Assembly (NCBI GenBank): GCA_030065975.1
Contig: JASJCN010000010.1
Span: 1 to 63,196 of the forward strand
Length of the DNA stretch: 63,196 bases
Direction: 5' to 3'
Source: Myxococcota bacterium
GTDB taxonomy: Bacteria; Myxococcota_A; UBA9160; UBA6930
Shown: in pieces, positions 8,429 through 58,879 of the stretch
How the letters are laid out: each line of letters opens with the position of its first letter
Numbering within the stretch: position 1 is the first letter of the stretch
Notes under the pieces: model-generated
Databases searched by the model: none
Seen by the model: the letters and a program-made list of their open reading frames with translations, nothing else
Told to the model about the DNA's origin: nothing
Position numbers and translations under genes: made by a program

Positions 8429-11644
<3,216 letters not shown>

Positions 11645-39424: not shown

Positions 39425-39766
39425 CTAGCCCAGCAGCTCGCCGAAGACCTCTTCGTTGAAGCCGACGATGACGTTCTTGCCGCTTCGAAGCGTCGGTGCA
39501 CGGAGGTTGCCCGTGGGCCCGAGCATGGCGTCCACCACGGCCTTCGGCGCCTTTCCGCCGGGCTCGAAGCGATCGACCTTCTTGCCCTTGGCGACGACGA
39601 CCTGGCGCGCCTCCTTCGCGAGCGCGGCCGCGTCGCTGCGTCCGAGCTTGCGGGATGCGGGAACGACTTCCTTCGCCTCGATTCCGCTGGCATCCAAGAA
39701 CTTGGATGCTCGAGTGCAGGACGTTCAGCCCTTGCGGTGGTAGTACCAGTCGACTCGCTTGGCCAT
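39425..39766 (-). CDS. ArsC/Spx-like thioredoxin-fold selenoprotein (U14-T-S-C17), 113 aa
   Basis: GGAGG RBS and ATG at 39766; MAKRVDWYYHRKG-TGA(39725-27)-TSC reads in frame into LGPTGNLRAPTLR..GFN; SECIS-like hairpin downstream. Confidence 0.88.
39690..39709 (-). promoter_or_regulatory. Candidate bacterial SECIS
   Basis: GCAUCCAA-GUUC-UUGGAUGC, an 8-bp stem starting at +16 after the UGA. Confidence 0.7.
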
Positions 39767-39897
39767 GAGGGGTCCTCCGTTCGAAGCCCAGGATCGCGTG
39801 CGGCAGCCCATGCGCAAGCGCGCCGCAGCCGGGTGCAGCCCGCGCGCAAGGACGCCGGGCGGTCGTCGAGTGCCCCGTTGCGAAACACCCCGAGGGC

Positions 39898-39924
39898 TAA
39901 AGGACCCGACTGTGCCGCCGATGA
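39898..39924 (+). promoter_or_regulatory. Sigma-28 (FliA/WhiG)-type promoter
   Basis: TAAA-N15-GCCGATGA versus the consensus TAAA-N15-GCCGATAA. Confidence 0.65.
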
Positions 39925-40017
39925 GACAGGGCGAGATCCTTTCGAGTTACCGTGCGCTTGAGCCACCCGGAGCGAAGGTCGCTCCCTCGGCCCAGACAGC
40001 TGCGGACCGGAAAGGGC

Positions 40018-40194
40018 ATGACAATGCGGATCCTGAACGTGGCCGTCATGGCGGCCATCCTGCTCTTGAGCACTGCCGCCTGGGCAGCTCAGGCCACGAC
40101 GGGCGTGGCCGAGACCCAGTCGACCCTCCTGATGGGAGCGGGCCTCGCCGGTCTCGTGATCGCCGGGAACCCGAGGGCAAGCGAGCAGGGCTGA
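40018..40194 (+). CDS. 58-aa mini-protein: signal peptide plus PEP-CTERM-like membrane segment
   Basis: Purine-rich GGAAAGGG before the ATG; signal peptide ending AWA; then VAETQSTLLMGAGLAGLVIAGNPR; a hairpin follows the stop. Confidence 0.6.
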   Translation: MTMRILNVAVMAAILLLSTAAWAAQATTGVAETQSTLLMGAGLAGLVIAGNPRASEQG

Positions 40195-40231
40195 TCCAAA
40201 GCGGGCTTCGCCCGCCTTGCGGGCCGGTCGT

Positions 40232-40717
40232 CTACTCGACGTCCGGCTCGCCCTCGTAGTAAGGGCGGATCTTCAGCAGCGCGCCCCCGACGGCCGTGGC
40301 CTTCGCCATGATGTCCTCGGGGATCGCGGCCTTGCGTCCTTCCTCGGCCGCGCTGTTCCGCAGCAGCGAGATCCGCTTGTAGATCGGGTGGGTCTCGTCG
40401 CGGCCCTCGCCGTCCTTCAGGCGCGCCAGGAGCCGCTTCGCCGAGCTGTTCATGACCCGGATGTCGTCGCGCGCCTGGTAGAAGGCGCGCTGGTTCACCT
40501 GGGTGACGTAGGTCGGCCGCGCAGCGAGGGAGCCGTCGAGCTCCGAGCAGGCGGCCACGAGCTCCTCGGCGTACTGGGTGACGCGCGCCTGGTCCCACGT
40601 TGCCGGCTCGCTGGCCGAAGCCGCCCCCGCGCTCAGCAGCAGGAGCGCCGCGGCCCCCAGGAAAAGGCTCATCCGGCGGGCGTTCCGCACGGGCTCGACA
40701 CGAAGAAACAAGCGCAT
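40232..40717 (-). CDS. Hypothetical secreted helical protein
   Basis: Signal peptide (LFLGAAALLLLSAGAASA) and typical codon usage. The start may be 40672. Confidence 0.7.
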   Translation of the reverse strand: MRLFLRVEPVRNARRMSLFLGAAALLLLSAGAASASEPATWDQARVTQYAEELVAACSELDGSLAARPTYVTQVNQRAFYQARDDIRVMNSSAKRLLARLKDGEGRDETHPIYKRISLLRNSAAEEGRKAAIPEDIMAKATAVGGALLKIRPYYEGEPDVE

Positions 40718-40834
40718 TCCATCCCCTCCACGGTTGCCGGCTGGGCCTGCCCCAACCCACCCCGTGGGATCGTATCACGCTCCCGTCCCACTGGGGCATA
40801 CACGGCGCTGGGGCGTGCACGGCTGGGGCCTGCA

Positions 40835-42067
40835 CTATTGGGCCTGATCGGGCCCGGGCAGCACCTTCATCTCGAGCTCGCGCTTCTGGATCCGGCGCCG
40901 CTCCTCCATCTGTCGCCACAGCTCGAGCTCCTCGGAGCGTCGCCGCAGCGCCTCGAGCAGGCGTCGTCGGTCGTCCTCGTTGCTGTCGGTCCCGGCGTCG
41001 TAGACCACGGCGCGCTCGGCGCTCGAGTCCTCGCCGTCCTCGCTGCGGGCCTCGACCCGTAGGAGATTCCGCCCGGGAGCGAGCCCCAGCAGGCCGTCGA
41101 AGGAGCCGTCCGGGAAGAGCCGCAGGGCCCGGGCGGGCTGGTCCGTGGTCTCGTTGCGCACGGTGAGCGACTCGATGCGTGCCAGGTCGAGGTTTCGCAG
41201 CCGCGCGATCAGCTCGGCCGGCCGGACGATCGACTCCGCCGTTCCTCCCGACAGCTCGGTCATCCGTTCGAGCAGAGGGATCGCCTCGGCGCCGTCGCGG
41301 CCCAGGGCGAAGGCGTAGAGCTGCACGTTCGCGAGCCCGGCGACCGCGGCCGACTCGATGGCGCGATCGTGGGCGCGCGTCGAATGCACCGGGAGGGTCG
41401 GGGCCCCGTCGGAGAGGAACACGATCCCGAGTCGCCGCTCGTAGCCGTCGCGCGTTCCGTGCTGGCCGCGGAGGCCCGGGCGCAGCGCCATCACGGAGCC
41501 GTCGATGGCCTTCGAGAAGTCGGTTCCGCCGAGACCGTGGGGGAAGTCCACTCGGATCGTGTCGAGGGCCGCCAGCAGCTCCTCCCGGGAGCTCCCGACC
41601 GGCGCGGCCAGGCGCACCGCATCCGAGAACGTGACGATGCCGACGCGGAAGCGGCGCGGGTCGAGGCGCTCGATCAGCGCCTTGGCCGCCTCGATCTCGC
41701 TGGCCAGGATGGTGTCGTCGAAGTCGCGCTTCTCGCCGAGCAGCCGAAGGGTGTGGGGGCGGATCGCGGGATGGCGCGCCAGGTCCGTGAGCAGCGCTGG
41801 ATCGGTTCTGCCCTCGGGGCCGTCCCCGTCGACGTCCACTCCGGTGTCGTGCAGCACGCTGTCCGAGATGTCGATGGCGATCACCAGGTCGTGGCGCACG
41901 CCCGCCGCCGAGCCCGCGCGGCCGCGGATCTCGATGAGCTCGGTCCCCACCTCGCGGGTCGAGGCGGTCGGCTCGTCGATCTCCACCTTGAAGCCGGCGC
42001 CGCGGCCAGGGCCCGGCACGAACGACAGGGTCAGCAGGATCGGGAGGAGCATCGCGAGCCCGCGCAT
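40835..42067 (-). CDS. Secreted VWA-domain protein (paralog 1)
   Basis: Signal peptide, MIDAS DISDS, GGT, FLSDG; DVDGDG insert. Confidence 0.8.
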   Translation of the reverse strand: MRGLAMLLPILLTLSFVPGPGRGAGFKVEIDEPTASTREVGTELIEIRGRAGSAAGVRHDLVIAIDISDSVLHDTGVDVDGDGPEGRTDPALLTDLARHPAIRPHTLRLLGEKRDFDDTILASEIEAAKALIERLDPRRFRVGIVTFSDAVRLAAPVGSSREELLAALDTIRVDFPHGLGGTDFSKAIDGSVMALRPGLRGQHGTRDGYERRLGIVFLSDGAPTLPVHSTRAHDRAIESAAVAGLANVQLYAFALGRDGAEAIPLLERMTELSGGTAESIVRPAELIARLRNLDLARIESLTVRNETTDQPARALRLFPDGSFDGLLGLAPGRNLLRVEARSEDGEDSSAERAVVYDAGTDSNEDDRRRLLEALRRRSEELELWRQMEERRRIQKRELEMKVLPGPDQAQ

Positions 42068-42117
42068 CCGTACAAGGATGCGGAAGCTTCGGGATCCCGT
42101 CACCCTCGCTGCCGCCC

Positions 42118-43101
42118 ATGTCCCCCGACTTCCGCCCCTTCGTCGAGGCACTCGAGGCTCGCCTCCCGCAGCACGCGCTGGCGGAGCCGGGCGCCCACGC
42201 GCGCTGGCGCGGCGGCACGGCCCCCGATCCGTACGGCTGTGCGGACGCCGCGAACATCCTCCACACCCTGGGAGCGCTGCCCCGGGACCCGGCCCTGCGC
42301 GCGGGCTTCGTGCGCCAGCTCCGGGCGTTGCAGGACCCGGAGACCGGGCGCTTCGTGGAGGGAAGCCACCATCCCACCCACACGACGGCCCACTGTCTCG
42401 GTGCCCTCCAGCTCTTCGACGCGCGCCCGCTGCACGCCCTCGCGAGCCTCGCCGAGCTGGAGGCGGCGGATGCCCTCGAGTCGTTCCTCGAGGGGCTCGA
42501 CTGGCGGGACGATCCGTGGCTGGCCTCGCACCAGGGGGCGGGCGCCTACGCGGCGCGAGTGCTGGCCGGCGAGGCCACGGCCTCCTTCGAGGACCGCTAC
42601 TTCGCGTGGCTGGCGCGGACCTGCGACCCGGCCACGGGGCTCTGGCGCGTAGGCTGCGTGACGCCTCCCTTCCGTTGGGGTGAGACGCGCTTCCCCCACC
42701 TCGCCGGCACCTTCCACTACCTGTTCAACCACGAGCACGCCCGGCGACCGCACCCGTACCCGGGCCCGCTGGTCGACACCTGCCTCGAGATGGAGGCGTC
42801 GGCGGAGTGGCCCTTCTCGCGAATGCTCGGCTTCGCCGAGATCGACTGGGTCTACTGCACCACCCGCGCCCTTCAGCAGAGCGGACACCGCGCGGCGGAT
42901 TGCCGGGCGGCTCTGCTTCGCTTCGCCGCGGCGCAGGCCGCCTTCCTCGCCGAGCTCGACTGGGAGCGCGACGACGCCCGGGATCTCCACGCGCTCTTCG
43001 GGGCGCTCTGCTCGGTGGCGGAGCTCCAGCGGGTGCTGCCCGCCGAGGTCGAGGTGGGGCGGCCGCTCTACCTGGTGTTGGACCGCCGCCCCTTCGTCTG
43101 A
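42118..43101 (+). CDS. Hypothetical protein (possibly prenyltransferase-like alpha/alpha toroid)
   Basis: Repeated LQDPETGRF and CDPATGLW QW-like motifs; His-rich conserved-looking segments. Confidence 0.55.
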   Translation: MSPDFRPFVEALEARLPQHALAEPGAHARWRGGTAPDPYGCADAANILHTLGALPRDPALRAGFVRQLRALQDPETGRFVEGSHHPTHTTAHCLGALQLFDARPLHALASLAELEAADALESFLEGLDWRDDPWLASHQGAGAYAARVLAGEATASFEDRYFAWLARTCDPATGLWRVGCVTPPFRWGETRFPHLAGTFHYLFNHEHARRPHPYPGPLVDTCLEMEASAEWPFSRMLGFAEIDWVYCTTRALQQSGHRAADCRAALLRFAAAQAAFLAELDWERDDARDLHALFGALCSVAELQRVLPAEVEVGRPLYLVLDRRPFV

Positions 43102-43117
43102 CCGTGCGCTCGAGGCG

Positions 43118-44170
43118 CTAGGCGATGCGGCTCCAGTCCTCGGCTCGCACCTCGTGCTGCAGCGGCTTGCCGGCCACGAAGCGCTCGATCTCGTCGATCG
43201 CGAGATCCACCATGCGCTCGCGCTCGGTGCCCAGCGCGCCCGCGATGTGCGGCGTGAGGAAGACGTTGTCGAGCTCGTAGAGCGGCGACTCCGGGGGCAG
43301 GATCTCCGGGTCGGTCGTGTCGATCACGGCATCCAGACGCCCGGACACGAGCTCGCGTTCGAGGGCCTCGCCGTCGACCAGGTGGCCCCGGGCCGTGTTG
43401 ATCAGCACGGCGCCGTCGGGCATCCGCGCGAGCCCGGTCGCATCGATCATGTGGCGCGTCTCGGGGAGCGCGGGTGCGTGCAGGCTCACCACGTCCGCGC
43501 GGGCGAGCAGCTCGTCGAGCGGCAGGGGCACGACGCCGAGGGCGCGCGCGTCGTCGTCCGAGAGGGTCGGGTCGTGGAGCAGGCACTCGAGGTCGAAAGG
43601 GCGCAGCAGCTCGATCACCCGGCGCCCGATGTGGGAGGCGCCGACGATGCCCACCCGTTTGCGATAGGCGCTCGGGTCGGGCACCTCGCGCGACCAGAGG
43701 CGGAATGTGCGCAGCTCGCGGTAGCGCCGCTGCAGGCGGAAGACGCGCTTGGTCGCGAAGAGGATGGCCGCGAGCGTGTACTCGGCGACGGGCAGGGCGT
43801 TGGCGGCGGCCGCCGACGTGACGCGGAGCCCGCGCTCGAAGCAGGCGTCGGTGACGTGGTTCTTCACGGTCCCGCTGGCGTGCATCACGGCCCGCAGGGA
43901 CGGGGCGCGATCGAGCACCTCGGGGGTGAGGGGCGGGCACCCCCAGGCCGTGAGCAGGATCTCCGCCCGGGCGAGCAGGGCCTCGGCCCGGGCGTCGGCG
44001 AGGTCGGTCAGGGGCTCCGGGTCGGGCAGCTCGCAGAGCCCCCGTAGCCGCTCGAGGTGCGCGCTGCGCACCATCCCCGCGGTGAGTGCGGGGGACATGA
44101 CGAGGACGGCGACCGGGCTGCTCAAGCGGCCTCCGGGGGCATGGGAGGGGCCGGGCAGGGTACCGCTCAC
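43118..44170 (-). CDS. D-2-hydroxyacid dehydrogenase family protein
   Basis: GIVGASHIG, VSLHAP, INTARG and TPHIAG motifs. Confidence 0.9.
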   Translation of the reverse strand: MSGTLPGPSHAPGGRLSSPVAVLVMSPALTAGMVRSAHLERLRGLCELPDPEPLTDLADARAEALLARAEILLTAWGCPPLTPEVLDRAPSLRAVMHASGTVKNHVTDACFERGLRVTSAAAANALPVAEYTLAAILFATKRVFRLQRRYRELRTFRLWSREVPDPSAYRKRVGIVGASHIGRRVIELLRPFDLECLLHDPTLSDDDARALGVVPLPLDELLARADVVSLHAPALPETRHMIDATGLARMPDGAVLINTARGHLVDGEALERELVSGRLDAVIDTTDPEILPPESPLYELDNVFLTPHIAGALGTERERMVDLAIDEIERFVAGKPLQHEVRAEDWSRIA

Positions 44171-44289
44171 CGGCCCTCAGACCACGCGATTCCCGTCCTC
44201 GAGACACCCTGTTCGGGACACCCATATGGGGGAAATCGCCCTCTCTGCGGGACCTACAGGGTTGCTCCCAACCGGTCGATGGTACCAGC

Positions 44290-46416
44290 GTGAGTGAATC
44301 CGAACGACTCCAGCCCGGAGTGCTGGTGGCCTCGGAGGATGCCGAGCTGCGGGCGCAGATGCGTTCGGAGCTGGGAGCCCGTGGTCACGAGGTCGCCGAG
44401 GTCGCCGACGCCGAAGCCGCGCGGTCGGCCTACCAGGCCGATCGGCACGGGCTCGTGATCGTGGACGCCGACCTCCCCCATGGCGGTGCGTACGCACTCT
44501 GCCGCGATCTGCGCGAGGCGGCGGGCAAGGGCACCCAACCGCTCTTCCTGCTCCACGACGCGCGGGATCGCGAGGCGCCGTCGGCCGCCTACGAGGCGGG
44601 CGCGAGCGACGTGCTGACCAAGCCCATCGACTGGGAGCGCCTCTTCGACCGGCTGCCCTTCCTGGCGCGCCGGGTCCACGGCGTGGCCGAGCTGCGCCGC
44701 GAGCTCACCAGCCTGAAGAACGCCCAGCGCCTCGCCGGGCTCGGAAACTTCGAGCTGCACTACGCCACGCGCAGCATGCGCTGGTCGGACGAGGTCTACC
44801 GGATCCTGGGTCTCTCGCCCGAGGAGACGGCGGCGGACGCCAAGCGCTGGTGGAGCCACGTGCACCCCGCCGATCGCGACCGGGTGCAGCAGGGGGTTCG
44901 CGAGGCGCTCGAGGACGAGGGCAGCTACGTGATCGAGCATCGGGTGGTGACGCCCGACGGTCGCGTCCGCCACGTGCGCCAGCAGGCCGAGCTCGTGATC
45001 GGTGGGCGGACCGAGGATCGCTGGCTGGTGGGCACCCTGCAGGACGTCACCGAGCAGAAGCTCGCGAGCCACCAGATCTGGTACCTGGCCAACTTCGACC
45101 ACCTGACCGGGCTCGCCAATCGGCGTCAGTTCCACCACGAGTTCGAGGAGGCGATCGCCCGGGCCCGGCGCTCCGGCCGACGGGTGGGCCTGCTCTACCT
45201 CGACCTCGACGACTTCAAGCGGGTCAACGACTCGATCGGCCACTCGGCCGGGGATCGCCTGCTGCGCCACGTGGGCGACCTGCTGCGCGGCCGCGTGCGC
45301 GCCTCGGACCTGGTGGCGCGCCCGGTCGAGGACGAGGCCCCGCTCACCATCTCGCGCCTCGGCGGCGACGAGTTCACCGTGCTGCTCACCGACATGGAGT
45401 CCCAGCACGAGCCCGCCGAGGTGGCCGAGCGCATCCTGGGCGCGCTCCAGAGCCCGATCCCGATCGAGGGCCAGGACGTCGCCGCCCTCGGCAGCATCGG
45501 CATCGCCGTCTTCCCGGACGACGGCAACGACGTCGAGACGCTGATGAAGTCGGCCGACACCGCGATGTACCACGCCAAGGAGAAGGGCCGGAACCGCTTC
45601 GAGTTCTTCCGCCCCTCCATGACCGAGGCGCTGGTGCGACGCCTCGAGCTCGAGCGACGCCTGCGGACCGCCATCGAGAGCGGCGGCATGAGCGTGCACT
45701 TCCAGGCGAAGATCGACCTGCGCACCCAGCGGGTGTGCGGCGCCGAGGCGCTCCTGCGCTGGCAGGACGAGAACCTCGGAGTCGTCTCGCCCGGCGAGAT
45801 CATTCCGGTTGCCGAGGAGACGGGCCTGATCGTCGCCCTCGGCCAGCGCGTGCTCGAGGAGGCCACGTCGGCCGCGGCGCGCTGGGCCCAGGAGGGCCAC
45901 GTGGGAATCCCCGTGGCCGTGAACTTCTCGCCCCTGCAGCTGTGTCGCGAGGATGCCGGAGAGGGCGTGACGGCCGCCCTGCAGACCACCGGGCTCGCGC
46001 CCTCGAGCCTCGAGATCGAGATCACCGAGAGCGTGCTGATGCAGGACGACGACCGCGTGGCCACGATGCTCCGGGACCTTCGGGCGATGGGCATCCGCGT
46101 GGCCCTCGACGACTTCGGCACCGGCTACTCCTCGCTCAGCTATCTCACGCGCTTCCCCCTCGACGTGCTCAAGCTCGACCGCTGCTTCACCCGGGACGTC
46201 GACACGGATCCCGCCGGCGAGGGCGTGGTGCGCGCCGTCGTCGGCATCGCCCACAGCCTCGGGCTCTCGGTCGTCGCCGAGGGCATCGACTCCGAGGATC
46301 AGGCGCGGGTGCTGCGCCGTCTCGGCTGCGAGGAGGGCCAGGGCTTCCACTTCAGCCCGGCCCTTCCCTACGACGAGTTCCTGGCCTTCCTGCAGTCGCG
46401 GGAGTCCCTGGAGTAG
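44290..46416 (+). CDS. REC-PAS-GGDEF-EAL diguanylate cyclase/phosphodiesterase
   Basis: Receiver (TKP), PAS (WSDE..VHPADR), DLDDFK.VND, GGDEF, EALLRW and DDFGTGYSSL motifs. Confidence 0.92.
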   Translation: MSESERLQPGVLVASEDAELRAQMRSELGARGHEVAEVADAEAARSAYQADRHGLVIVDADLPHGGAYALCRDLREAAGKGTQPLFLLHDARDREAPSAAYEAGASDVLTKPIDWERLFDRLPFLARRVHGVAELRRELTSLKNAQRLAGLGNFELHYATRSMRWSDEVYRILGLSPEETAADAKRWWSHVHPADRDRVQQGVREALEDEGSYVIEHRVVTPDGRVRHVRQQAELVIGGRTEDRWLVGTLQDVTEQKLASHQIWYLANFDHLTGLANRRQFHHEFEEAIARARRSGRRVGLLYLDLDDFKRVNDSIGHSAGDRLLRHVGDLLRGRVRASDLVARPVEDEAPLTISRLGGDEFTVLLTDMESQHEPAEVAERILGALQSPIPIEGQDVAALGSIGIAVFPDDGNDVETLMKSADTAMYHAKEKGRNRFEFFRPSMTEALVRRLELERRLRTAIESGGMSVHFQAKIDLRTQRVCGAEALLRWQDENLGVVSPGEIIPVAEETGLIVALGQRVLEEATSAAARWAQEGHVGIPVAVNFSPLQLCREDAGEGVTAALQTTGLAPSSLEIEITESVLMQDDDRVATMLRDLRAMGIRVALDDFGTGYSSLSYLTRFPLDVLKLDRCFTRDVDTDPAGEGVVRAVVGIAHSLGLSVVAEGIDSEDQARVLRRLGCEEGQGFHFSPALPYDEFLAFLQSRESLE

Positions 46417-46476
46417 GACCGGCGGCTCTGCGCGCCTTCATGGTCGCGACGGAGGGCCTCTGCTAACCCCGCCCCC

Positions 46477-48908: not shown

Positions 48909-49022
48909 GACGGGGCAGTATCGCGATCGCACCCCACCGGCGCCCGTTGCACGCCCCACTCCGTCCCGCGCACTTCGTCCCCGCGGGTTGGGTAGACTCG
49001 CGCCTCATCCAATGGAGCCCGC

Positions 49023-49814
49023 GTGAGGCGCGACTTCCCTTCGTCTGGTGCACCCCTGGGTCGGACCTCTGCGCGGGTCCCGCGCCGGGTGTGGGTGCGT
49101 CTGCTGGGGACGCTGTGCCTGGCCGGGGCCCTGGCCCACGGCTCTCCGAGCGGGGCAGAGACCCGAGACGCCGAGAGCGTGGGCACCGGTGAGCTGCGCG
49201 GCAGCGTGCGCATCCTGAAGAAGCGCCTCTTCGGCGGCGTGCGCCCGGCACGCACGCACGGCGACGTGTTGCTCAGCGTGCGCGGGTTCGGCGCGGCGCC
49301 ACCCGAGGCGCTCGCCGAGCTGCGCCAGCGGAACAAGCGCTTCGAGCCCCGCGTCCTTCCGGTGGTGGTGGGGCAGCGCGTGCGCTTTCCCAACGACGAC
49401 GACATCTACCACAACGTGTTCTCGGTCTCGCCCCACGCGCGCTTCGATCTCGGCCACTACAAGGGGAGCGACCCACCTGGAGAGGTCGCGTTCGACGCGC
49501 CCGGCATCGTTCCGATCTACTGCAACATCCACCCCGAGATGCTCGCCTACGTGGTCGTGCTCGAGAACGCGGCCTTCACCTTCAGCGACGGCGAGGGCGG
49601 CTTCCGACTCGAGGGCCTGCCCGCGGGCTCGTTGCAGCTGGACGCCTGGATTCCCGGCGCCGAGATGGTGAGCCTCCCCATCGAGATCATCGAAGGCGCC
49701 GTGACCGAGGTCGAGCTCGAGGTGGAGCAGGTGCAGAAGATCCCGGCCCACCGCCGCAAGGACGGCAGCCACTACCCGCCGCCCGACGACGATTTCTACG
49801 ACGAGGAAGGCTAG
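49023..49814 (+). CDS. Secreted cupredoxin-like protein with C-terminal beta-sandwich
   Basis: FPNDDDIYHNVFS and YCNIHPEM (His/Cys/His/Met type-1 copper pattern). Confidence 0.78.
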   Translation: MRRDFPSSGAPLGRTSARVPRRVWVRLLGTLCLAGALAHGSPSGAETRDAESVGTGELRGSVRILKKRLFGGVRPARTHGDVLLSVRGFGAAPPEALAELRQRNKRFEPRVLPVVVGQRVRFPNDDDIYHNVFSVSPHARFDLGHYKGSDPPGEVAFDAPGIVPIYCNIHPEMLAYVVVLENAAFTFSDGEGGFRLEGLPAGSLQLDAWIPGAEMVSLPIEIIEGAVTEVELEVEQVQKIPAHRRKDGSHYPPPDDDFYDEEG

Positions 49815-51824: not shown

Positions 51825-51921
51825 GCAGGCCGCCGAGAAATAGGCAGGCTGCCGAGAAATAGGCAGGCCGCCGAAGAACAGGCAGGCTGCCGAGGAGTAG
51901 GCGGGCCGCCGGGAAGTAGGC
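51808..51921. repeat. 19-bp tandem repeat x6, progressively degenerate (AGGCCGCCGAGAAATAGGC)
   Basis: The first copy contains the cyclase stop codon. There are no spacers. Confidence 0.85.
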
Positions 51922-51950
51922 GTCGGCGCGGGCACGGCTATTCTAGAGCG

Positions 51951-53489
51951 ATGCGTCTCTCCTCCCGTCTCGCCGACCTCGTCCTCTCGGACGACCGGGG
52001 CGAGGACGTGCGTCTCGGCGACCTGTGGCGCGAGCGGGCCGCGGTGCTCGTCTTCGTTCGCCACTTCGGCTGACTCTTCTGCCGCGAGCAGGTCGCCCAG
52101 TTGGGCGACGCACAGGACGAGATCGAGGCCGCCGGAGGCGACCTCGTGGTGATCGGGAACGGCGCCGCGCACTTCGCGAAGGCCTTCCGAGAGGACCTCG
52201 ACTTCCGCGGGACGCTGCTGGTCGACCCCGAGCTACGCGCCTATCGCGTGGCGGGTCTGCGACGCGGTCGGGTCGAGGTCCTGTCGCCGCGGCTCGGCTG
52301 GAACGCCCTGCGAGCCCTGGGCAAGGGACACCGGCAGGGCGCGATCGAGGGCGACCCGTGGCAGCTCGGGGGGGCCCTGGTGATCCGGCCGGGCGGCGAC
52401 CTCGCCTTCCGGCACGTGAGCACCGTGGCCGGGGATCACGCCGACCCCGAGGAGCTGATCGCCGCACTCGAGCCCGGCCTCGTGCCGTTGCCGGAGGGGG
52501 AGGGCGGGAGCGCTCTCGCCAGCGTGGCCCGGCCCCTCGGTCGCCTGGTCGATCCCCTGGTCCCGCTGTCCTTCTCGCGGCCCGGCTACGCGATCCGCGC
52601 GGCAGGCTTCGACCCCGACGATCTCGTCGTCGACCTGGGGGAGCAGCGCTGGCTCGTGACCGGCGCGAACTCCGGGATCGGCTTCGAGACGGCTCTGGCC
52701 CTCGCCGACCTCGGTGCCGAGGTCGAGCTCCTGTGCCGCAACCCCGAGCGCGGCGCCGAGGCCGCCGAGCGGATCGCGGACTCCACGGGAAACCGCCGGG
52801 TCCGGGCCCACGTGCTCGACGTCTCGAGCCTCGCCGACGTGGCCCAGGTCGCCGAGCAGCTGATCGATCGACCCGTCGACGGGATCGTCCACAACGCCGG
52901 GGTGCTTCCCGACGATCTGATCGAGAGTGCGGACGGCCTCGAGCTGACCTGGGCGACCCACGTAGCGGGCCCCCATCTGCTGACGCGGCTGCTGCGCCCC
53001 GCGCTCGAGGCGGCGCCGGCCGCGCGCGTGATCTTCGTCTCTTCCGGCGGGATGTACACCCGCGGCCTCGAGACCCGCGACCCCGACTGGCAGCGACGCC
53101 GCTACGACGGCGTGCTGGCCTACGCCGAGACCAAGCGCGCCCAGGTGGTGCTCGCGGAGCTCTGGGCGGAGGCGTTCGCCGAGACCGGGGTCACGTGCAA
53201 CTCCATGCATCCGGGCTGGGCGGAGACCCCGAGCGTCGAGAGCTCGCTGCCCCGCTTCCATCGCGTGACGAAGCCCTTCCTGCGGACACCGGCGGAAGGC
53301 GCCGACACGGTGGTGTGGCTCGCGGCAAGCCCGGCGGCGGCCGGGGAGACCGGCCGCTTCTTCTTCGACCGCCGGGCGGTCGGGACCCACTGGCTGCTCG
53401 GCACCCGCGAGAGCGCGAGCGAGCGGGCCTGGCTCTGGGAGCGCTGCGAGAAGCTCGCCGCGCCTTTCGTGGTGGTCCCCTCGGACTGA
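51951..53489 (+). CDS. Selenoprotein fusion: PRXL2/SelU-like (AhpC-TSA_2) UxxC domain plus DHRS12-like SDR, 512 aa
   Basis: ATG 51951 reads ...VFVRHFG-TGA(52071-73)-LFCRE in frame into WQLGGALVI; then TGANSGIG, HNAG, SSGGMY, YAETK and MHPGWAETP. Confidence 0.85.
52092..52109 (+). promoter_or_regulatory. Candidate bacterial SECIS
   Basis: GUCGCCC-AGUU-GGGCGAC stem starting at +19 after the UGA. Confidence 0.7.
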
Positions 53490-53496
53490 GGCCCGG

Positions 53497-54828
53497 CTAC
53501 GCGCGGGCCGAGCGCCGGCTCCGCAAGAGCCAGCCCTGGACGCGCGACCGGAGCTGGCTCGACTTGATCGGCCCGCTCAGGAAGTCGTGTGCGCCGGCGG
53601 CGAAGGCGCGCTCGGACGTGGCCGCCCGGGTCGGCTCGTGGGCGAGCACCAGCACGGACGCGCACGGGAGGGCCTCGCGAAGGGAGCGGCAGGCATCGGC
53701 CGCCGCCGGCTCGGAGCCGCGGCCGTCGAGCAGCACCAGGTCGGGCGGGGCGGCTCCGCCGCGCGTCGCCTCCTCCTCTCCGTGGGCGACCCGCAAGCGG
53801 ATGCCCTCGGGCTCGAGGGCCTCGGCCACGAGGTCGGCCGTCTCGCGATCGGCGTCGACCAGCAGGACGCACGGCGTCCGGGCCGACGCGTCGCCCGGGG
53901 GAGAGAGGCGCGCGTCGGGGGCCGTCGGCTGGTGTTGCGAGCCGGATCCTCGCAGCTCGAGCTCGCGGCCTTCGGCGGCGGCGAAGACGTCGAGGTCCGA
54001 GCCGACCCGGTCGACGCGCTTCCGGGCCCGCTCCTCGAGCTCGCGGATCGCGTCGTCGTTGCGGGTCGGGTCGTGGGAGAAGAGCGCGAGCCGGCGCGCA
54101 CCGGCGGCGAGCCCGTAGTCGACGGCCTGCTCCACCGGCGTGTGGCCCCAGCCGGCCTTCTCGGGGAACTCGGCCAGGGTGTACTGGGCATCGTGCACCA
54201 CGAGGTCGGCGTCGCGTAGGAATGCCACGTGACGCCGATCCTCGGCGTGGGCGGGCGCACTCCCCGGCGCGACGTCCGGGTCGAAGGCGGCGTGCGGCTC
54301 GTGGTCGGCGGCGTACACGAAGACGGCGCCGTCCACCTCGAGCCGATAGCCGAGGGTGAGCGCCGTGTGCTTCAGCAGCTGGGTCGTCACGCGGATGCTC
54401 CCGAGCTGGAGCGAGCCCTCCTGCAGATCCTCGAAACGCGGCGAGCTGGCGAGGCTCTGCAGCACCACGGGATGGTGTTCGTACGACATCTGCCCCGACA
54501 GCGAACGCTCGGTCTGATGGCGACGAGCGCCCGGAGCGCGGACGGTCCAGTGCTGGCCGGGCTCGAAGAGCGGGCTGAAGAAGGGGAAGCCCTGGATGTG
54601 ATCCCAGTGGGTGTGGCTCACCAGCAGGTGGGAGCGCGCCTCGGGTCCCGATTCCGGGGCCGAGCCCAGGGCCGCGGCCAGGGCGTGGGCGCCGGTGCCG
54701 CAGTCGATCACGACGCGAGTGCCGTCGTCGGCCACCACCTCGAGACACGAGGTGTTGCCGCCATAACGCACCGTCTCCGGTCCGGGCTTCGGAATCGAGC
54801 CGCGCGTACCCCAGAATCGAACCCGCAA
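53497..54828 (-). CDS. MBL-fold metallohydrolase with C-terminal receiver-like domain
   Basis: FWGTRGSIP, YGGNTSC, SHTHWDHIQG, WGHT and SHDP motifs; C-terminal VLLVDAD..VLLD. Confidence 0.87.
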   Translation of the reverse strand: MRVRFWGTRGSIPKPGPETVRYGGNTSCLEVVADDGTRVVIDCGTGAHALAAALGSAPESGPEARSHLLVSHTHWDHIQGFPFFSPLFEPGQHWTVRAPGARRHQTERSLSGQMSYEHHPVVLQSLASSPRFEDLQEGSLQLGSIRVTTQLLKHTALTLGYRLEVDGAVFVYAADHEPHAAFDPDVAPGSAPAHAEDRRHVAFLRDADLVVHDAQYTLAEFPEKAGWGHTPVEQAVDYGLAAGARRLALFSHDPTRNDDAIRELEERARKRVDRVGSDLDVFAAAEGRELELRGSGSQHQPTAPDARLSPPGDASARTPCVLLVDADRETADLVAEALEPEGIRLRVAHGEEEATRGGAAPPDLVLLDGRGSEPAAADACRSLREALPCASVLVLAHEPTRAATSERAFAAGAHDFLSGPIKSSQLRSRVQGWLLRSRRSARA

Positions 54829-54854
54829 GGACTGCTCCCGCGCCCCCCCAAAAC

Positions 54855-54884
54855 GGCGCTGACCGGCGCTGACTGGCGCTGACT
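54855..54884. repeat. 10-bp direct repeat x3 (GGCGCTGACY)
   Basis: Exact tandem copies upstream of the MBL gene. Confidence 0.8.
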
Positions 54885-55045
54885 CCTATGGGATCGCCTC
54901 CCCCGGCCGGCAGGATGTGAGGAGCCTCACACTCCGGGTCGATCGGCAGAAAAACGGCTCCCGCGCGCAACTCGGGCTCTTCCCTGCGCGTAGCGGGCCA
55001 CATCGGTGCGTGAATCGACACTCACTCTGGAGGCTTCTCGTCCGC

Positions 55046-55077
55046 CATGACGCGACGCGTCTGGGTCATGACGCGAC
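55046..55077 (+). promoter_or_regulatory. Direct repeat CATGACGCGAC x2 at 21-bp period (putative regulator site)
   Basis: Two exact 11-mers about two helical turns apart, upstream of the di-heme protein gene. Confidence 0.45.
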
Positions 55078-55176
55078 TTGCCTTACCGTGTGGACGGTTA
55101 CGTTCCGTGGTAGTTTGCCCGAGGCTCTCCCGACCGATCGTCCGATCGGCGCGGCCAGACCAGAAGGAGCTCTCCT

Positions 55177-58100
55177 TTGCCCGGCTTCCCGACCCTCCCG
55201 GTGCGCGCCCTGTTCTTCGCGCTGCTGATCTCGGCCTCTGCCCAGGCCCAGACGCCCTCGTTCATCACGTTCGAGACGGGGCCCGTCCGCCCCATCGGCG
55301 TCTCCGAGGACGGCAATCGCGTCTTCGTCGTGAACACGCCCGACGCCCGACTCGAGGTGTTCGCCGCCGATGCCGTGGGGCTGACCCACACCGCCTCGAT
55401 CCCCGTCGGCCTCGAGCCCGACGCGCTCGCGGTGCGCGGAAACGACGAAGTGTGGGTCGTGAACCACCTGTCGGACTCGGTGAGCATCGTCGACGTGACC
55501 CTGGGCCGGGTGAAGAAGACCCTGCTCGTGGGCGACGAGCCCCGCGACATCGTCTTCGCGAACGACCGCGCCTTCATCACCACCGCCCACCGCGGACAGC
55601 ACCGCACCGACGCCTCGGTCGCCGGGGTCCCCGGTGTCGGCGATCCGCAGCTCACGACGCCCGGCGTCGGTCGCGCCGACGTCTGGGTCTTCGACGCGGA
55701 CGCGCCCGGCGACTCCCTGGGCGGCGATCCCGTAGCGGTCCTGACCCTCTTCGCCGACACACCCCGAGCCCTGGCCGTGAGCCCCGACGGCGGAACCGTC
55801 TACGCCGCGGCCTTCCACAGCGGCAACCAGACGACCGTGATCTCCGAGGGGCTCGTCTGCAACGGCTTCGACCCCGCGACCCCCTGCCAGATCGGGCCGA
55901 CCCCGGTGCCCGGCGGCAACCCCGGCCCGGCGACCAACCACGAGGGCGTCCCCGCTCCCGAGGTCGGCATCATCGTCCGGCTGAACCCCGCCACCGGCAA
56001 GTGGGAGGACGAGCTCGGCCGCGACTGGAGCGCCGCCGTTCGCTTCGACCTCCCGGACAAGGACGTCTTCGCCATCGATGCGGAGACCCTGCAGACCACC
56101 GAGGAGATCTCCGGCGTCGGCACCATCCTCTTCAACATGGTGGCCAACCCGCGCACCGGCGCGATCTACGTGTCCAACACCGAGGCGCGCAACGAGGTGC
56201 GCTTCGAGGGCCCGGGCGAGTTCTTCGACTCGACGGTCCAGGGCCGCCTGCACGAGTCGCGCATCACGGTGATCAAGGACGGCCAGGTCCTGCCCCGGCA
56301 TCTGAACAAGCACATCGACTACGACGTGCGCCCGGCGCCCCCGGGCACGAAGGACCACAGCCTCGCCACGCCCCTCGACATGGTGATCGACAAGGGCGGA
56401 CGCTTCCTCTACGTGGCCGCGTTCGGCTCGTCCAAGATCGGCGTCTACCGCACCAGCCGCCTCGAGAACGACAGCTTCGATCCCGAGACGGCCAGCGCCC
56501 GGCACATCGACGTCTCCGGTGGCGGCCCGAGCGGCCTGGTGATCGACGATGCCCGCCGGCGCCTCTACGTGGCGACGCGCTTCGACAACGGCGTCTCCGT
56601 GGTGGACCTGCGCAGCCTGCGCGAGGTCGACCACGTGTCCCTCCACAACCCGGAGCCCGACTCCGTGGTCGCGGGCCGCCCCGTCCTCTACGACGCCTTC
56701 AACACCTCGAGCAACGGCGAGGCCTCGTGCTCCTCGTGCCACGTGTTCGGCGACCTCGACTCCCTGGCCTGGGATCTCGGCGACCCGGACGGCGGCGTGG
56801 GCCGGAACCCGATGGTCGTGAACCTGGACACCGCCGTCTTCCTGGCCCGCGATCTCTTCGACGCCGACTTCTTCAGCGGGCTGAACGGCGAGGGCAACCT
56901 CGACGACTTCAGCCCGATGAAGGGGCCGATGACGACCCAGACCTTCCGCGGAATGGTCAACTCGGGCCACATGCACTGGCGGGGCGACCGCGCCGACGGC
57001 TTCTTCGGCTTCGACGCCGGCAACACCAACGACTCGGAGCTCTCCTTCAAGAACTTCATCGTGGCGTTCCCGGGCCTGCTCGGCTCCGAGCGCAGCGTGA
57101 ACGATGCGGATCTGCAGCAGGACATGCAGGCATTCACGGACTTCACCCTCCAGATCGCCCTGCCGCCGAACCCGATCCGGAACCTCGACAACTCCGACAC
57201 GCCGGCCCAGGCCCGCGGACGCGACTTCTTCTTCGGCGGCCCGGACGGCACCCAGCTCTCGGACGGCCTCCCGCTGATCCCCGGGGCCACGGGCTTCACC
57301 TGCAACGGCTGCCACGACCTCGATCCGTCGAAGGGCTTCTTCGGGACGGGTGGCGACTCGAGCTTCGAGTTCGAGGAGCAGACCATGAAGGTCCCGCACA
57401 TGCGCAACCTCTATCAGAAGGTCGGCATGTTCGGGATGGCGCCCGTGCCCAACTTCTTCCTCTTCGGTGACAACGGCCACCAGGGCGACCAGATCCGCGG
57501 CTTCGGCTTCCTGCACGACGGCAGCTCGGACACCCTGTTCCGCTTCTTCCGCTCGATCGTGTTCGATCCGGACACCTTCAGCATCCCGGAGTTCGGCATC
57601 GTGGGTGGCGGCTTCACCGGCGGCAACCCGCAGCGGCGCGACATGGAGGCCTTCGCCCTGGCGTTCCCCTCGGATCTGGCACCCATCGTGGGCCAGCAGG
57701 TCACCCTGACCGCGACCTCCGGGGCCGACGTCGACGCCCGCGTCCAGCTCCTGATGGAGCGCGCCGAGGCGCCCTTCACCTCGAAGTTCCTGGGCGGGGA
57801 CGTGACCGAGTGCGACCTGATCGCCAAGACCAGCCTCCTCGGCGCCCCGCGCGGCTACTTCTATACCGGGGCCGGCACGTTCCTGGCCGACGACGGCAGC
57901 ACGCTCTCCGACGCGGAGCTGCGCGCGATCGCCGACACCAACGACGTGACCTACACCTGCATGCCGCCCGGATCGGGCATGCGCGCCGGGGTGGACCGGG
58001 ACGAGGACGACGTGCTCGACGGCCTCGACAACTGCCCGGCCGTGGCCAACGCCGGCCAGGCCGACGGCGACGTCGACGGCCTGGGCGACGCGTGCGATGA

Positions 58101-58221
58101 CGCCAACGCCCTCGTGCTCGTGGCCAGCAGCGGCACGGGCGCTTGCGGTCTGGGCTTCGAGGCCGTGCTTCCGCTGGCCGCAGCCTTCTGGATGCGCCGC
58201 CGCCGGACGCTTCGCGCCTAA
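55177..58221 (+). CDS. Secreted YncE/YVTN beta-propeller plus di-heme cytochrome c peroxidase-like protein, with TSP3-like repeats and a C-terminal sorting signal
   Basis: AAGGAG RBS, signal peptide, propeller blades, CSSCH and CNGCH, HWRGDR, KVPHMRNLYQK, DNCP..N..Q.D.D.DG.GDACD, and ACGLGFE-TM-RRRR. Confidence 0.85.
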   Translation: MPGFPTLPVRALFFALLISASAQAQTPSFITFETGPVRPIGVSEDGNRVFVVNTPDARLEVFAADAVGLTHTASIPVGLEPDALAVRGNDEVWVVNHLSDSVSIVDVTLGRVKKTLLVGDEPRDIVFANDRAFITTAHRGQHRTDASVAGVPGVGDPQLTTPGVGRADVWVFDADAPGDSLGGDPVAVLTLFADTPRALAVSPDGGTVYAAAFHSGNQTTVISEGLVCNGFDPATPCQIGPTPVPGGNPGPATNHEGVPAPEVGIIVRLNPATGKWEDELGRDWSAAVRFDLPDKDVFAIDAETLQTTEEISGVGTILFNMVANPRTGAIYVSNTEARNEVRFEGPGEFFDSTVQGRLHESRITVIKDGQVLPRHLNKHIDYDVRPAPPGTKDHSLATPLDMVIDKGGRFLYVAAFGSSKIGVYRTSRLENDSFDPETASARHIDVSGGGPSGLVIDDARRRLYVATRFDNGVSVVDLRSLREVDHVSLHNPEPDSVVAGRPVLYDAFNTSSNGEASCSSCHVFGDLDSLAWDLGDPDGGVGRNPMVVNLDTAVFLARDLFDADFFSGLNGEGNLDDFSPMKGPMTTQTFRGMVNSGHMHWRGDRADGFFGFDAGNTNDSELSFKNFIVAFPGLLGSERSVNDADLQQDMQAFTDFTLQIALPPNPIRNLDNSDTPAQARGRDFFFGGPDGTQLSDGLPLIPGATGFTCNGCHDLDPSKGFFGTGGDSSFEFEEQTMKVPHMRNLYQKVGMFGMAPVPNFFLFGDNGHQGDQIRGFGFLHDGSSDTLFRFFRSIVFDPDTFSIPEFGIVGGGFTGGNPQRRDMEAFALAFPSDLAPIVGQQVTLTATSGADVDARVQLLMERAEAPFTSKFLGGDVTECDLIAKTSLLGAPRGYFYTGAGTFLADDGSTLSDAELRAIADTNDVTYTCMPPGSGMRAGVDRDEDDVLDGLDNCPAVANAGQADGDVDGLGDACDDANALVLVASSGTGACGLGFEAVLPLAAAFWMRRRRTLRA

Positions 58222-58244
58222 CGCTCGCCGACCCGACGAAACAG

Positions 58245-58274
58245 GGCGGGCGGGCCCATGCGGCCCCGCCCGCC
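58245..58274. terminator. Hairpin between convergent genes
   Basis: GGCGGGCGGG...CCCGCCCGCC 10-bp stem. Confidence 0.55.
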
Positions 58275-58294
58275 ATTCGCTCTGTCGTTCGCCG

Positions 58295-58879
58295 CTACTC
58301 GCTCGGCGGGGGCGGAGCCGCGGAGCCGGCTCGCGGGAACGCCAGCTCGTCGAGCTTGTCGGCGATGTCCTGGCCCGCCGTCGAGACGTCGACGGCCTTG
58401 TCCACGTGGCGGACGATGCCGTCGGAGTCGACGTAGAAGGTCCATCGCTTCGCGAAGAAGCCGCCGAATCCCGCGACGCCGTAGGCCTTGGCGGCCTCGG
58501 CCTCGGGGTCGGAGAGGAGCACGTGCTTGGCTTCCAGGGACTCGGCGAAGTCGCGGTTCTTTTCGACGTCGTCGAGGCTCACCATGTAGACGGCGACGTC
58601 GAAGGCCTGAAGGGCTTCGGCGCTGTCACGCAGCGCCTCGAGCTCCTGCGTTCAGCCAGGCGTGAAGGCCTTGGGGAACCAGGCCAGCACCACGCCCCGC
58701 TTGCCCAGGTGGTCGGAGAGGGCGTGGGTGCGGCCGTCCGAGCCGGCCAGTGAGAAGGCGGGCGCCTTGTCGCCCACCTCGGGCGCTGCCTGCGCGCCGA
58801 GGGGCACGGCGAGGAGCAGCGCGGCCAGGGATCCGCCCAGGAATCCGGCCAGGGCCGGCAAGCGTCGTGTGCGCGTCAT
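58295..58879 (-). CDS. BCP/PrxQ peroxiredoxin selenoprotein with signal peptide (U76), 194 aa
   Basis: WFPKAFTPG-TGA(58652-54)-TQE joins two in-frame ORFs; LLSD and AKRWTF (conserved Arg) follow; SECIS-like hairpin downstream. Confidence 0.9.
58619..58637 (-). promoter_or_regulatory. Candidate bacterial SECIS
   Basis: GGCGCUG-CGUGA-CAGCGCC, a 7-bp stem starting at +15 after the UGA. Confidence 0.65.

Follow-up and report, generated by a model that had tools for sequence, protein, structure and literature searches.

Three genes in a 63,196-nucleotide stretch of DNA from a Myxococcota bacterium (contig JASJCN010000010.1 of assembly GCA_030065975.1; the whole stretch is called the window here) carry an in-frame TGA. 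They are almost certainly three independent, unlinked selenoprotein genes that are decoded by the standard bacterial selenocysteine (Sec) pathway. Family domains span each TGA, and the TGA is kept in orthologs. The hairpins that follow exceed chance expectation, bear marks of selection at the RNA level and agree with the published bacterial SECIS consensus. The reading also rests on tRNA-Sec and SelD in the same genome, on SelA and SelB in relatives, and on 17 further selenoprotein genes with hairpins. The finding is real but ordinary, since the system is already well described, and it leaves unchanged the understanding of how bacterial Sec decoding works. Its practical value lies in annotation, where gene callers treat the UGA as the end of these genes.

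Table 1. Predicted selenoprotein genes of the window with their putative Sec codons and SECIS hairpins (window coordinates).
Feature	Position	Strand	Description
ArsC-like selenoprotein gene	39425-39766	-	113 codons plus stop; U is codon 14, motif U-T-S-C
Sec-UGA of ArsC-like gene	39725-39727	-	TGA at aligned codon in 30/30 ortholog loci
ArsC-like SECIS hairpin	39690-39709	-	15 nt spacer, 8 bp stem, loop GTTC
SelL-related redox domain fused to SDR (SelL-SDR)	51951-53489	+	512 codons; U41, motif U-L-F-C
Sec-UGA of SelL-SDR	52071-52073	+	TGA at aligned codon in 30/30 ortholog loci
SelL-SDR SECIS hairpin	52092-52109	+	18 nt spacer, 7 bp stem, loop AGTT
PrxQ/BCP-type peroxiredoxin selenoprotein gene	58295-58879	-	194 codons; U76 at peroxidatic position, T-P-G-U
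Sec-UGA of PrxQ	58652-58654	-	TGA in 25/30, TGC in 5/30 ortholog loci
PrxQ SECIS hairpin	58619-58637	-	14 nt spacer, 7 bp stem, loop CGTGA

The Selenoprotein Genes

The TGA lies at the redox-active Cys position in all three genes, as the initial annotation had proposed. The motif is UxxC in the ArsC-like and SelL-related proteins and TxxU, at the peroxidatic position, in the PrxQ-type peroxiredoxin. Thirty ortholog loci per gene were taken from 121 genomes of the order (25 of the PrxQ loci are Sec forms), and the TGA proved to be conserved at the aligned codon (Table 1).

The ArsC-like gene is a member of NF041106, 'ArsC family (seleno)protein', scoring 114.4 bits (cut-off 85). The full length of the model (positions 1-107) is matched, the UxxC motif is present, and no difference from the family was found. 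Matches occur in 68 of the 121 genomes, most with orthologs having one in-frame TGA. The start is probably the ATG at 39766, with GGAGG just before it; the mechanical ORF begins at a TTG (39817) upstream of the conserved part, and ortholog alignments to this long ORF start near residues 17-18. An 'Arsenate reductase-like protein, UxxC' is an entry in Table 1 of PMC13188914, and an 'Arsenate reductase 2, UxxC' is one in the GOS marine survey (PMC2398784). The GC content of the gene (65.5%) is below the genome norm, and its codon usage is atypical for the genome.

The peroxiredoxin matches PF00578 (AhpC/TSA) with 106.5 bits (cut-off 26) and NF006960 with 84 bits. Table 1 of PMC13188914 has Prx selenoproteins (PF00578, TxxU) among those with experimental support, and the protein of the window resembles them in its PrxQ/BCP-like sequence and in the predicted Sec at the peroxidatic Cys of a T-x-x-U motif. 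Unlike them, it has a hydrophobic, signal-like segment at the N-terminus. Sec and Cys forms alternate among its close relatives (25 versus 5 of 30 loci).

In SelL-SDR, residues 9-172 match NF040769 with 128.8 bits (cut-off 120), with the Sec/Cys pair at the first redox position; further domain matches are PF13911, PF00106 and PF13561. Full-length matches number 42, spread over 41 other genomes of the order, and every one contains exactly one TGA. A Cys homolog, P0013, has C aligned to the U.

Hairpins Downstream of the UGA Codons

The hairpin arms are GCATCCAA and TTGGATGC in the ArsC-like gene, GTCGCCC and GGGCGAC in SelL-SDR, and GGCGCTG and CAGCGCC in PrxQ. Given the spacers in Table 1, the first stem nucleotide falls at +16, +19 and +15 relative to the UGA (in the same order), and the loop G is at +24, +27 and +23, all as originally claimed. 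The UGA-to-loop distances are 23, 25 and 21 nt, and the MFE values of the bare hairpins are -10.2, -12.9 and -12.1 kcal/mol. The hairpin, like the TGA, persists in 25-30 ortholog loci per gene, and the loop G is retained in all 85 aligned orthologous Sec-form rows of the three genes together.

Whether such hairpins are equally frequent after true stops had been raised as a possible objection, and they are not. With a strict definition (12-22 nt spacer, perfect stem of at least 7 bp, 4-5 nt loop containing GT), a hairpin follows 2 of 922 TGAs that resemble true stops, versus all three here; for TGA trinucleotides in all frames the figure is 88 of 83,627. Folding energy by itself stands out only modestly against the GC-rich background: z is -1.55 (ArsC-like), -1.94 (SelL-SDR) and -2.61 (PrxQ). 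Shuffled sequences folded as well in 13, 13 and 1 of 200 cases, respectively.

The Genomic Selenoproteome and the SECIS Consensus

A large selenoproteome had been predicted, and at least 20 genes were found in the genome, 19 of them firm and one weak. The 17 outside the window are of known families and have a post-UGA hairpin in every case. The total is a lower bound, as genes with Sec near the C-terminus or an atypical SECIS may escape the scans. All selenoprotein families here are known marine-type selenoproteins. Both the MAG and the order to which it belongs have a selenoproteome of marine type, with about 20 genes, in which thioredoxin folds dominate. Across the 20 genes, spacers are 9-18 nt and loops 3-5 nt long; the loops include GUUC, AGUU, CGUGA, GGC, GCC and GUG, with GU absent from GGC and GCC. 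Eighteen genes have an uninterrupted stem of 6-8 bp, a 3-5 nt loop with G at position 1 or 2 and a UGA-to-loop distance of 16-25 nt. The exceptions are a bulged stem (C177) and a weak element (C186).

As a means of finding selenoproteins, the strict pattern derived from the initial annotation disappointed. Its 88 genomic matches took in only 5 of the 20 genes: the three in the window, a deiodinase-like gene (C178) and a SelW-like gene (C72). The remaining matches had a poor coding score on one or both flanks (one flank was positive for C34, C114 and C210). Coding-potential scans with a paralog check yielded 103 relaxed candidates, 24 of which were family-scanned; C187 and C329 had no family match in that scan. 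Five candidates (C105, C150, C207, C228 and C190) were rejected, each being two adjacent genes in the same frame. A looser hairpin-plus-coding scan gave 54 further rows, none with a redox motif.

PMC13188914 summarises the bacterial SECIS consensus (bSECISearch, Zhang & Gladyshev 2005) as follows: the loop has 3-9 nt and the upper stem 4-16 bp, one or both of the two leading loop nucleotides are G (usually then G or U), the UGA-to-loop distance is 16-37 nt and the MFE is at most -7.5 kcal/mol. The three hairpins conform to this summary in loop length, stem, loop G, UGA-to-loop distance and MFE. They lie inside the ORF just after the UGA and have the loop G at position 1 or 2, then U. Nothing in them falls outside the summarised ranges, of which they occupy the compact, perfectly paired end. 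The initial annotation had offered one compact, bulge-less geometry as a SECIS model for the organism. As a new or lineage-specific model it is not supported: hairpins that fit the published consensus are not a new SECIS type, and spacers and loops vary over the genome.

The E. coli fdhF SECIS reportedly has a minimal upper stem-loop of 17 nt that is placed 11 nt after the UGA. A bulged U is required in that element. The window hairpins resemble it in being small apical stem-loops that have G-U in the loop and follow the UGA at a short, fixed distance, and the winged-helix domains at the C-terminus of SelB presumably bind them as well. They differ from it in the stem, which has no bulged U, and in spacing (14-18 nt in the window and 9-18 nt genome-wide, versus 11 nt).

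It is rather improbable that the lineage has a distinct, minimal SECIS (a bulge-less stem of 6-8 bp, a 3-5 nt G-loop and tolerant spacing) read by a SelB whose specificity is unlike the E. coli type. The 18 regular elements would suit such a system, as would the fact that the bulged U of fdhF is seen in none. However, every value is within the general consensus as summarised in PMC13188914, and two elements out of the 20 have a bulge or are otherwise imperfect. The spacing spans 9 nt and the loops differ, so there is no single geometry, and the SelB of a same-genus relative has the ordinary wing_2 and wing_3 domains.

Selenocysteine Machinery

The standard bacterial pathway requires components that were found in part. 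The tRNA-Sec is present on contig C123 (c[3444,3542] by ARAGORN; Rfam RF01852, 71.5 bits, gathering score 47) and SelD on C16 (TIGR00476, 247.6 bits, cut-off 125). In the assembly, which is 85.5% complete, selA and selB were not found with the TIGR00474, PF03841, TIGR00475 and PF09107 profiles or with a same-genus SelB protein as query. A SelB-like fragment at the start of C92 belongs not to SelB but to a second copy of EF-Tu, of which it forms the N-terminus. The initial annotation had named a lack of tRNA-Sec or SelB in a near-complete genome as grounds for giving up the Sec reading. Taken at face value, half of this applies, since neither selA nor selB is in the assembly; the tRNA-Sec is there. 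Among relatives, SelB exceeds the cut-off in 17 of 20 and SelA in 19 of 20, and within the same family both do so in 12 of 12. A same-genus relative has a SelA and a canonical SelB; the C-terminal domain of the latter, whose inspection had been recommended, is of the ordinary type (SelB-wing_2 plus SelB-wing_3).

The failure to detect selA and selB would also be expected if the Sec machinery had been lost and the TGA genes were recent pseudogenes or ended at the UGA. This is very unlikely. tRNA-Sec and SelD have been kept, and all 20 TGA genes have frames that are otherwise open and hairpins that are intact. Synteny with the same-genus genome indicates assembly gaps instead. The genes that flank selA there have their counterparts on contig C300, whose end falls within the gene adjoining selA; selA and the next three ORFs of the locus have no match, and the following ORF is found on another contig. 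At the selB locus, no match was found in the assembly for selB, for the essential gene serS next to it or for two more flanking ORFs. Against the Sec reading, it is somewhat unlikely that two separate loci would be missing by chance alone from a genome of this completeness. Both selA and selB probably lie in the unassembled part of the genome.

Selection on RNA Structure

The peptides encoded by the hairpins (ASKFLDA, VAQLRD/VAQLGD and ALRDSA) are strongly conserved, and shuffled GC-rich sequence folds almost as well. Both would be expected if the hairpins were not selected as RNA but arose incidentally, in DNA rich in GC, from conservation at the protein level (the helix after the CxxC motif). 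This has hardly any probability in view of the synonymous positions. Third-codon-position identity is far higher in the hairpin than outside it: 0.90 versus 0.68 in the ArsC-like gene, 0.96 versus 0.69 in SelL-SDR and 0.90 versus 0.61 in PrxQ. Rare codons are also fixed where the structure or the loop needs them. TTG, GCA and CGT, which had been singled out as atypical, occur only 1.97, 4.07 and 4.25 times per 1000 codons in 1060 long ORFs of the genome, and the TTG in the SelL-SDR loop is invariant in 30/30 loci. That these codons reflect selection on RNA, as had been suggested, is supported by the frozen third positions, by covariation, and by the loop codons of Sec- versus Cys-form PrxQ.

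Covariation had been proposed as a check, and pairs altered on both sides occur in all three stems. In the SelL-SDR alignment (A2) the stem is paired in 99.5% of cells, with three pairs altered on both sides, which was reached by 0 of 500 shuffles. The PrxQ alignment (A3, 25 Sec forms) has 98.3% of cells paired and two pairs, with five cells, altered on both sides. In the ArsC-like alignment (A1) the paired cells amount to 91.7%, and the covariation is a single double change that was equalled in 85 of 500 shuffles; the GCA...GAT of the window's hairpin represents a change from G-C to A-U, with G-U intermediates in four orthologs. As a control, pairing falls to 59% or less once the stem partner is slid by 1-3 columns. 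Compensatory changes keep the pairing even where the amino acid changes. For example, an R-to-G replacement in the window is accompanied by GCG to GCC, and in L059 an A-to-T replacement by CGC to CGT.

The Cys forms of PrxQ encode similar peptides. Their loop Arg codon is the common CGC in 5/5, versus CGT or CGG in 25/25 Sec forms; the loop U/G is absent in all five, and in three the stem is gone as well. The three alignments are clean natural examples of how an RNA structure limits the choice of codons, and even of amino acids, within a coding region, to which PrxQ adds the Sec-versus-Cys contrast.

Cys can be inserted at Sec codons. Recoding of the UGA not, or not only, as Sec (Cys or Trp via near-cognate read-through, or Cys-tRNA-Sec under selenium limitation) is nonetheless most improbable, with tRNA-Sec, SelD and SECIS hairpins present, the positions being classic Sec/Cys sites and TGA otherwise an ordinary stop (922 clear cases).

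Decoding by the standard bacterial pathway would proceed as follows. The tRNA-Sec would be charged with serine and then converted by SelA to Sec-tRNA, with selenophosphate supplied by SelD. SelB would bring the Sec-tRNA to the ribosome, where its C-terminal winged-helix domains would grip the in-ORF hairpin 14-18 nt after the UGA and recognise the G(U) exposed in the 4-5 nt loop. This contact would let the ribosome translate the UGA as Sec, which would then occupy the redox-active position in an enzyme with a thioredoxin fold. Actual Sec insertion at the three UGAs is a prediction from sequence, as are the binding of SelB to the hairpins and the need for the hairpins in UGA read-through, for which conservation, covariation and the loss in Cys forms are indirect evidence.

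A SelL-Related Domain Fused to a Reductase

The SelL-SDR fusion, publicly annotated short at its TGA, is the most interesting by-product of the analysis. The N-terminal 172 residues are above the NF040769 cut-off, with U first at the CxxC position. In contrast to SelL, this part is fused to an SDR domain of roughly 300 residues, and the motif is UxxC, whereas that of eukaryotic selenoprotein L is UxxU. SelL is described as 'a Prx-like protein' in PMC2398784. No mention of the fusion was found in main-text passages and full-text term searches of a set of selenoproteome papers.

The window's gene is on public record as a 462-residue protein that lacks the active-site selenocysteine, and 118 of the 119 other listed relatives look cut in the same way. 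Among the 120 database relatives listed, 119 span only 86-92% of the query, as would be seen if the genes had been called from a start after the UGA; the only one with full query coverage is P0013, the Cys form. The source labels of the closest proteins name Myxococcota or Deltaproteobacteria. SelL-SDR may, tentatively, be an undescribed and widespread selenoenzyme, in which a thioredoxin-fold domain with a Sec UxxC motif would be wired to an NAD(P)H-dependent reductase to form a self-contained selenol-based reductase or peroxidase. Retention of the UGA and SECIS in 41 other genomes and the partial coverage of the listed relatives argue for this, as do the lineage's 20 genes read via minimal hairpins whose spacing is tolerant over 9 nt.

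A search of genome contigs for related loci gave seven, all relatives of the SDR domain only; the best was in an Acidobacteriota MAG, with 57% identity.

Selenoprotein genes in the window

Three redox genes of the window carry an in-frame TGA and are new members of known selenoprotein families with, very probably, standard bacterial Sec decoding. The initial annotation had proposed that the TGAs encode selenocysteine, that the RNA is under selection and that the selenoproteome is large, all of which hold, and one compact, bulge-less SECIS geometry, which as a single or novel type does not. Gene models obtained by translating through the TGA recover the coordinates first proposed for all three genes.

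Sec-TGA genes of the window, each read through its TGA, with the perfectly paired hairpin that follows
Gene product	Coordinates	Strand	Sec-TGA	Motif	Spacer after UGA (nt)	Stem (bp)	Loop
ArsC-like protein	39425-39766	-	39725-39727	U-T-S-C	15	8	GTTC
SelL-related redox domain + short-chain dehydrogenase fusion (SelL-SDR), 512 codons	51951-53489	+	52071-52073	U-L-F-C	18	7	AGTT
PrxQ/BCP-type peroxiredoxin, signal-like N-terminus	58295-58879	-	58652-58654	T-P-G-U	14	7	CGTGA

In family scans the TGA lies inside the family domain in all three. The ArsC-like protein matches NF041106, 'ArsC family (seleno)protein' (114.4 bits, cut-off 85), SelL-SDR matches NF040769, 'SelL-related redox protein' (128.8 bits, cut-off 120), together with SDR models, and PrxQ matches PF00578, AhpC/TSA (106.5 bits). 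A Pfam scan of the translated ArsC-like gene gave no match, so its fold assignment depends on the NCBIfam model. The true start of this gene is probably the ATG downstream of GGAGG. Its GC content is 65.5% (genome, 70.8%) and, unlike SelL-SDR and PrxQ, its codon-usage score is about zero or negative 3' of the UGA; the AT-richer hairpin accounts for part of this anomaly. The PrxQ N-terminus is Arg-rich, followed by a hydrophobic stretch ending A-Q-A. This segment resembles an export signal, in which case the Sec-peroxiredoxin would be exported; PrxQ ortholog matches start only at about residues 17-30.

Database records of the fusion differ from the gene model. Among the 120 closest matches listed, 119, including the window's own record (462 aa), have 445-595 residues and 86-92% query coverage, and are annotated, for example, as 'SDR family NAD(P)-dependent oxidoreductase'. 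Among these listed matches a Cys form (P0013) alone covers the whole query, its C aligned to U. The shorter records appear N-terminally truncated, consistent with gene calls that start past an unrecognised Sec codon. The SDR fusion, SelL and NF040769 go unmentioned in the main texts of PMC13188914, PMC13326102 and PMC12013277, as does the SDR fusion in the fusion section of PMC2398784, and a literature search linking selenoproteins with 'short-chain dehydrogenase' found no paper.

ARAGORN also called a 92-nt 'tRNA-Asp' in the window (11469-11560, +, anticodon atc). Rfam gave no tRNA or other family at gathering score within the window, and the call is probably a false positive.

Hairpins and chance

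The stems start at +16, +19 and +15 (ArsC-like, SelL-SDR and PrxQ) with the loop G at +23 to +27, exactly as first described. A strict pattern (12-22 nt spacer, perfect stem of at least 7 bp, 4-5 nt loop containing GT) is present in all three genes. It follows 2 of 922 'true-stop-like' TGAs (those preceded by 60 open, well-scoring codons and followed by non-coding sequence) and 88 of the 83,627 TGA trinucleotides in all frames of the genome. Its presence in three genes out of three thus far exceeds what chance would give. Taken by itself, folding energy sets the hairpins apart less clearly from this GC-rich background: z against shuffles is -1.55 (ArsC-like), -1.94 (SelL-SDR) and -2.61 (PrxQ), with 13, 13 and 1 of 200 shuffles, respectively, folding as well. 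The codons TTG, GCA and CGT, thought atypical, are indeed rare: a count over 1060 long ORFs gives 1.97, 4.07 and 4.25 per 1000 codons.

Conservation and covariation

The ortholog search covered 121 genomes belonging to the same order. SelL-SDR is matched over its full length 42 times, in 41 other genomes, with exactly one in-frame TGA in each match, and matches without a TGA cover the SDR part only. The ArsC-like protein is matched in 68 of the 121 genomes, nearly always with one TGA, and PrxQ in 53 (the genome under study counted in both). Thirty loci were retrieved for each gene. At the aligned codon, all 30 ArsC-like, all 30 SelL-SDR and 25 PrxQ loci have TGA; the remaining five PrxQ loci (L117, L120, L123, L124 and L126) have TGC. 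Sec-to-Cys or Cys-to-Sec switches occur inside a single PrxQ ortholog group of this order.

Over the 48 nt from the TGA onward, with the five Cys-form PrxQ rows excluded, 91.7% (ArsC-like), 99.5% (SelL-SDR) and 98.3% (PrxQ) of stem cells are paired. A slide of the 3' partner by 1-3 columns drops pairing to 10-59%. In SelL-SDR three pairs are changed on both sides, which none of 500 shuffles attains; one of the three is a G-C to C-G exchange in the window itself, at the price of an Arg-to-Gly change. In PrxQ two pairs and five cells are changed on both sides, the cell count and covariation score being attained by 0 of 500 shuffles and the pair count by 62. Covariation is weak in the ArsC-like gene because 85 of 500 shuffles attain its one double-changed pair, GCA...GAT of the window itself (G-C replaced synonymously by A-U, with G-U intermediates in four orthologs).

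Selection on the RNA, as initially proposed, is borne out by these paired stems and by codon choice. Third-codon-position identity in the hairpin versus outside is 0.90 vs 0.68 (ArsC-like), 0.96 vs 0.69 (SelL-SDR) and 0.90 vs 0.61 (PrxQ), and the rare TTG of the SelL-SDR loop is unchanged in 30 of 30 loci. The PrxQ loop codon is CGT or CGG in all 25 Sec forms and the common CGC in all five Cys forms, where the stem is absent in three and the loop U/G in five. These Cys-form genes serve as a natural control.

Size of the selenoproteome

A census (coding-potential scan, hairpin scan and paralog check, then family scans of 24 fetched loci) adds 17 selenoprotein genes on 17 other contigs, so that the genome has at least 20, large as claimed and well under the maxima of 57 and 63 given in PMC13188914. 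The 17 comprise six Prx-like genes with W-U-P-x-C (that on C231 weakly: PF00578, 26.6 bits vs 26), three deiodinase-related (NF038285), three PrdB-like (TIGR04483), and one each of PrxQ, AhpC/PrxU-like, SelW/T/H (TIGR02174), UGSC (NF041046, 152 bits vs 125) and AhpD-related (NF041238, 452.8 bits vs 175). The family list closely parallels the marine GOS selenoproteome as described in PMC2398784.

Other in-frame TGAs were set aside. On contig C190 (4326-5321) the terminal TGA of a glyoxalase/VOC gene is in frame with the next, GFA-family gene; these are read as two genes, not a selenoprotein. The arrangement recurs near C104 7259, its stop aligned with the C190 locus. Candidates at C187 7896-9026 (-) and C329 593-1243 (-) had no match in the family scans. 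The former has C-G-U, then a membrane-like C-terminal half; the latter has a poor coding score and, on C47, a paralog of 66% identity whose aligned residue is Cys.

Ordinary bacterial SECIS elements

A post-UGA hairpin is found in all 20 selenoprotein genes. In 18 it has an uninterrupted 6-8 bp stem and a 3-5 nt loop with G within the first two positions; the exceptions are the C177 PrxQ, whose stem is interrupted by a bulge of 2 nt, and the deiodinase-like gene on C186, whose element is weak. Spacers range over 9-18 nt and UGA-to-loop distances over 16-25 nt, and loops include GGC, GCC and GUG besides those containing GU. In the bacterial consensus as given in PMC13188914, a stem of 4-16 bp carries a loop of 3-9 nt that lies 16-37 nt from the UGA and has G within its first two positions, with MFE <= -7.5 kcal/mol. 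Each of the three hairpins of the window falls within all of these limits. They are thus ordinary bSECIS elements, among the more compact of those known. A simplified no-bulge consensus model accepts 17 of 20 selenoprotein genes and 79 of 922 true stops, a narrower genome-fitted model 14 and 24, and the strict pattern recovers 5 of 20 genes. With such varied spacing and loops, a single geometry usable as a special SECIS model is not upheld. A lineage-specific SelB preference is an unlikely possibility that nothing here requires; SelB of the same-genus genome G001 has ordinary SelB-wing_2 and SelB-wing_3 domains.

Sec machinery

The assembly (5.54 Mb, 369 contigs, 70.8% GC, estimated completeness 85.5%), in which the window is contig C195, has tRNA-Sec on C123 (ARAGORN; Rfam RF01852, 71.5 bits vs 47) and SelD on C16 (247.6 bits, cut-off 125). 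SelA and SelB went undetected in it by four models and by a same-genus SelB query. Lack of tRNA-Sec or SelB in a near-complete genome had been named as evidence against Sec decoding; the first is present, and absence of the second from an 85.5%-complete assembly is traced to a likely gap. Among 20 relatives, SelB scores exceed the cut-off in 17 and SelA scores in 19; all 12 same-family genomes, G001 included, have both. Five G001 ORFs on one side of selA correspond to C300 in the same order (51-85% identity), and C300 stops at its base 1 within the gene adjoining selA; selA and three further G001 ORFs have no match in the assembly, and the subsequent ORF lies on a different contig. In G001 selB adjoins serS (TIGR00414, 425 bits), and selB, serS and two flanking ORFs likewise have no match. 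Because the essential serS is missing too, the lack of selB points to an assembly gap rather than gene loss. An apparent SelB fragment at C92 1-110 (-) is a second EF-Tu copy, just past the end of an EF-G gene and running off the contig start.

Gene neighbourhood

In a post-hoc simulation, the probability that three of the 20 genes fall inside 19.5 kb is 0.017. The three window genes lie on different strands with unrelated genes in between, and their proximity is read as an inherited neighbourhood rather than an operon. In some relatives, ArsC-like and PrxQ genes are about 13 kb apart (G003, C1 3.19-3.20 Mb), SelL-SDR and PrxQ about 10.5 kb apart (G119, C14 152-165 kb), and an SDR-only homolog is 0.3 kb (G055, C118 4.2-5.7 kb) or 5 kb (G019, C1 998-1004 kb) from the ArsC-like gene.
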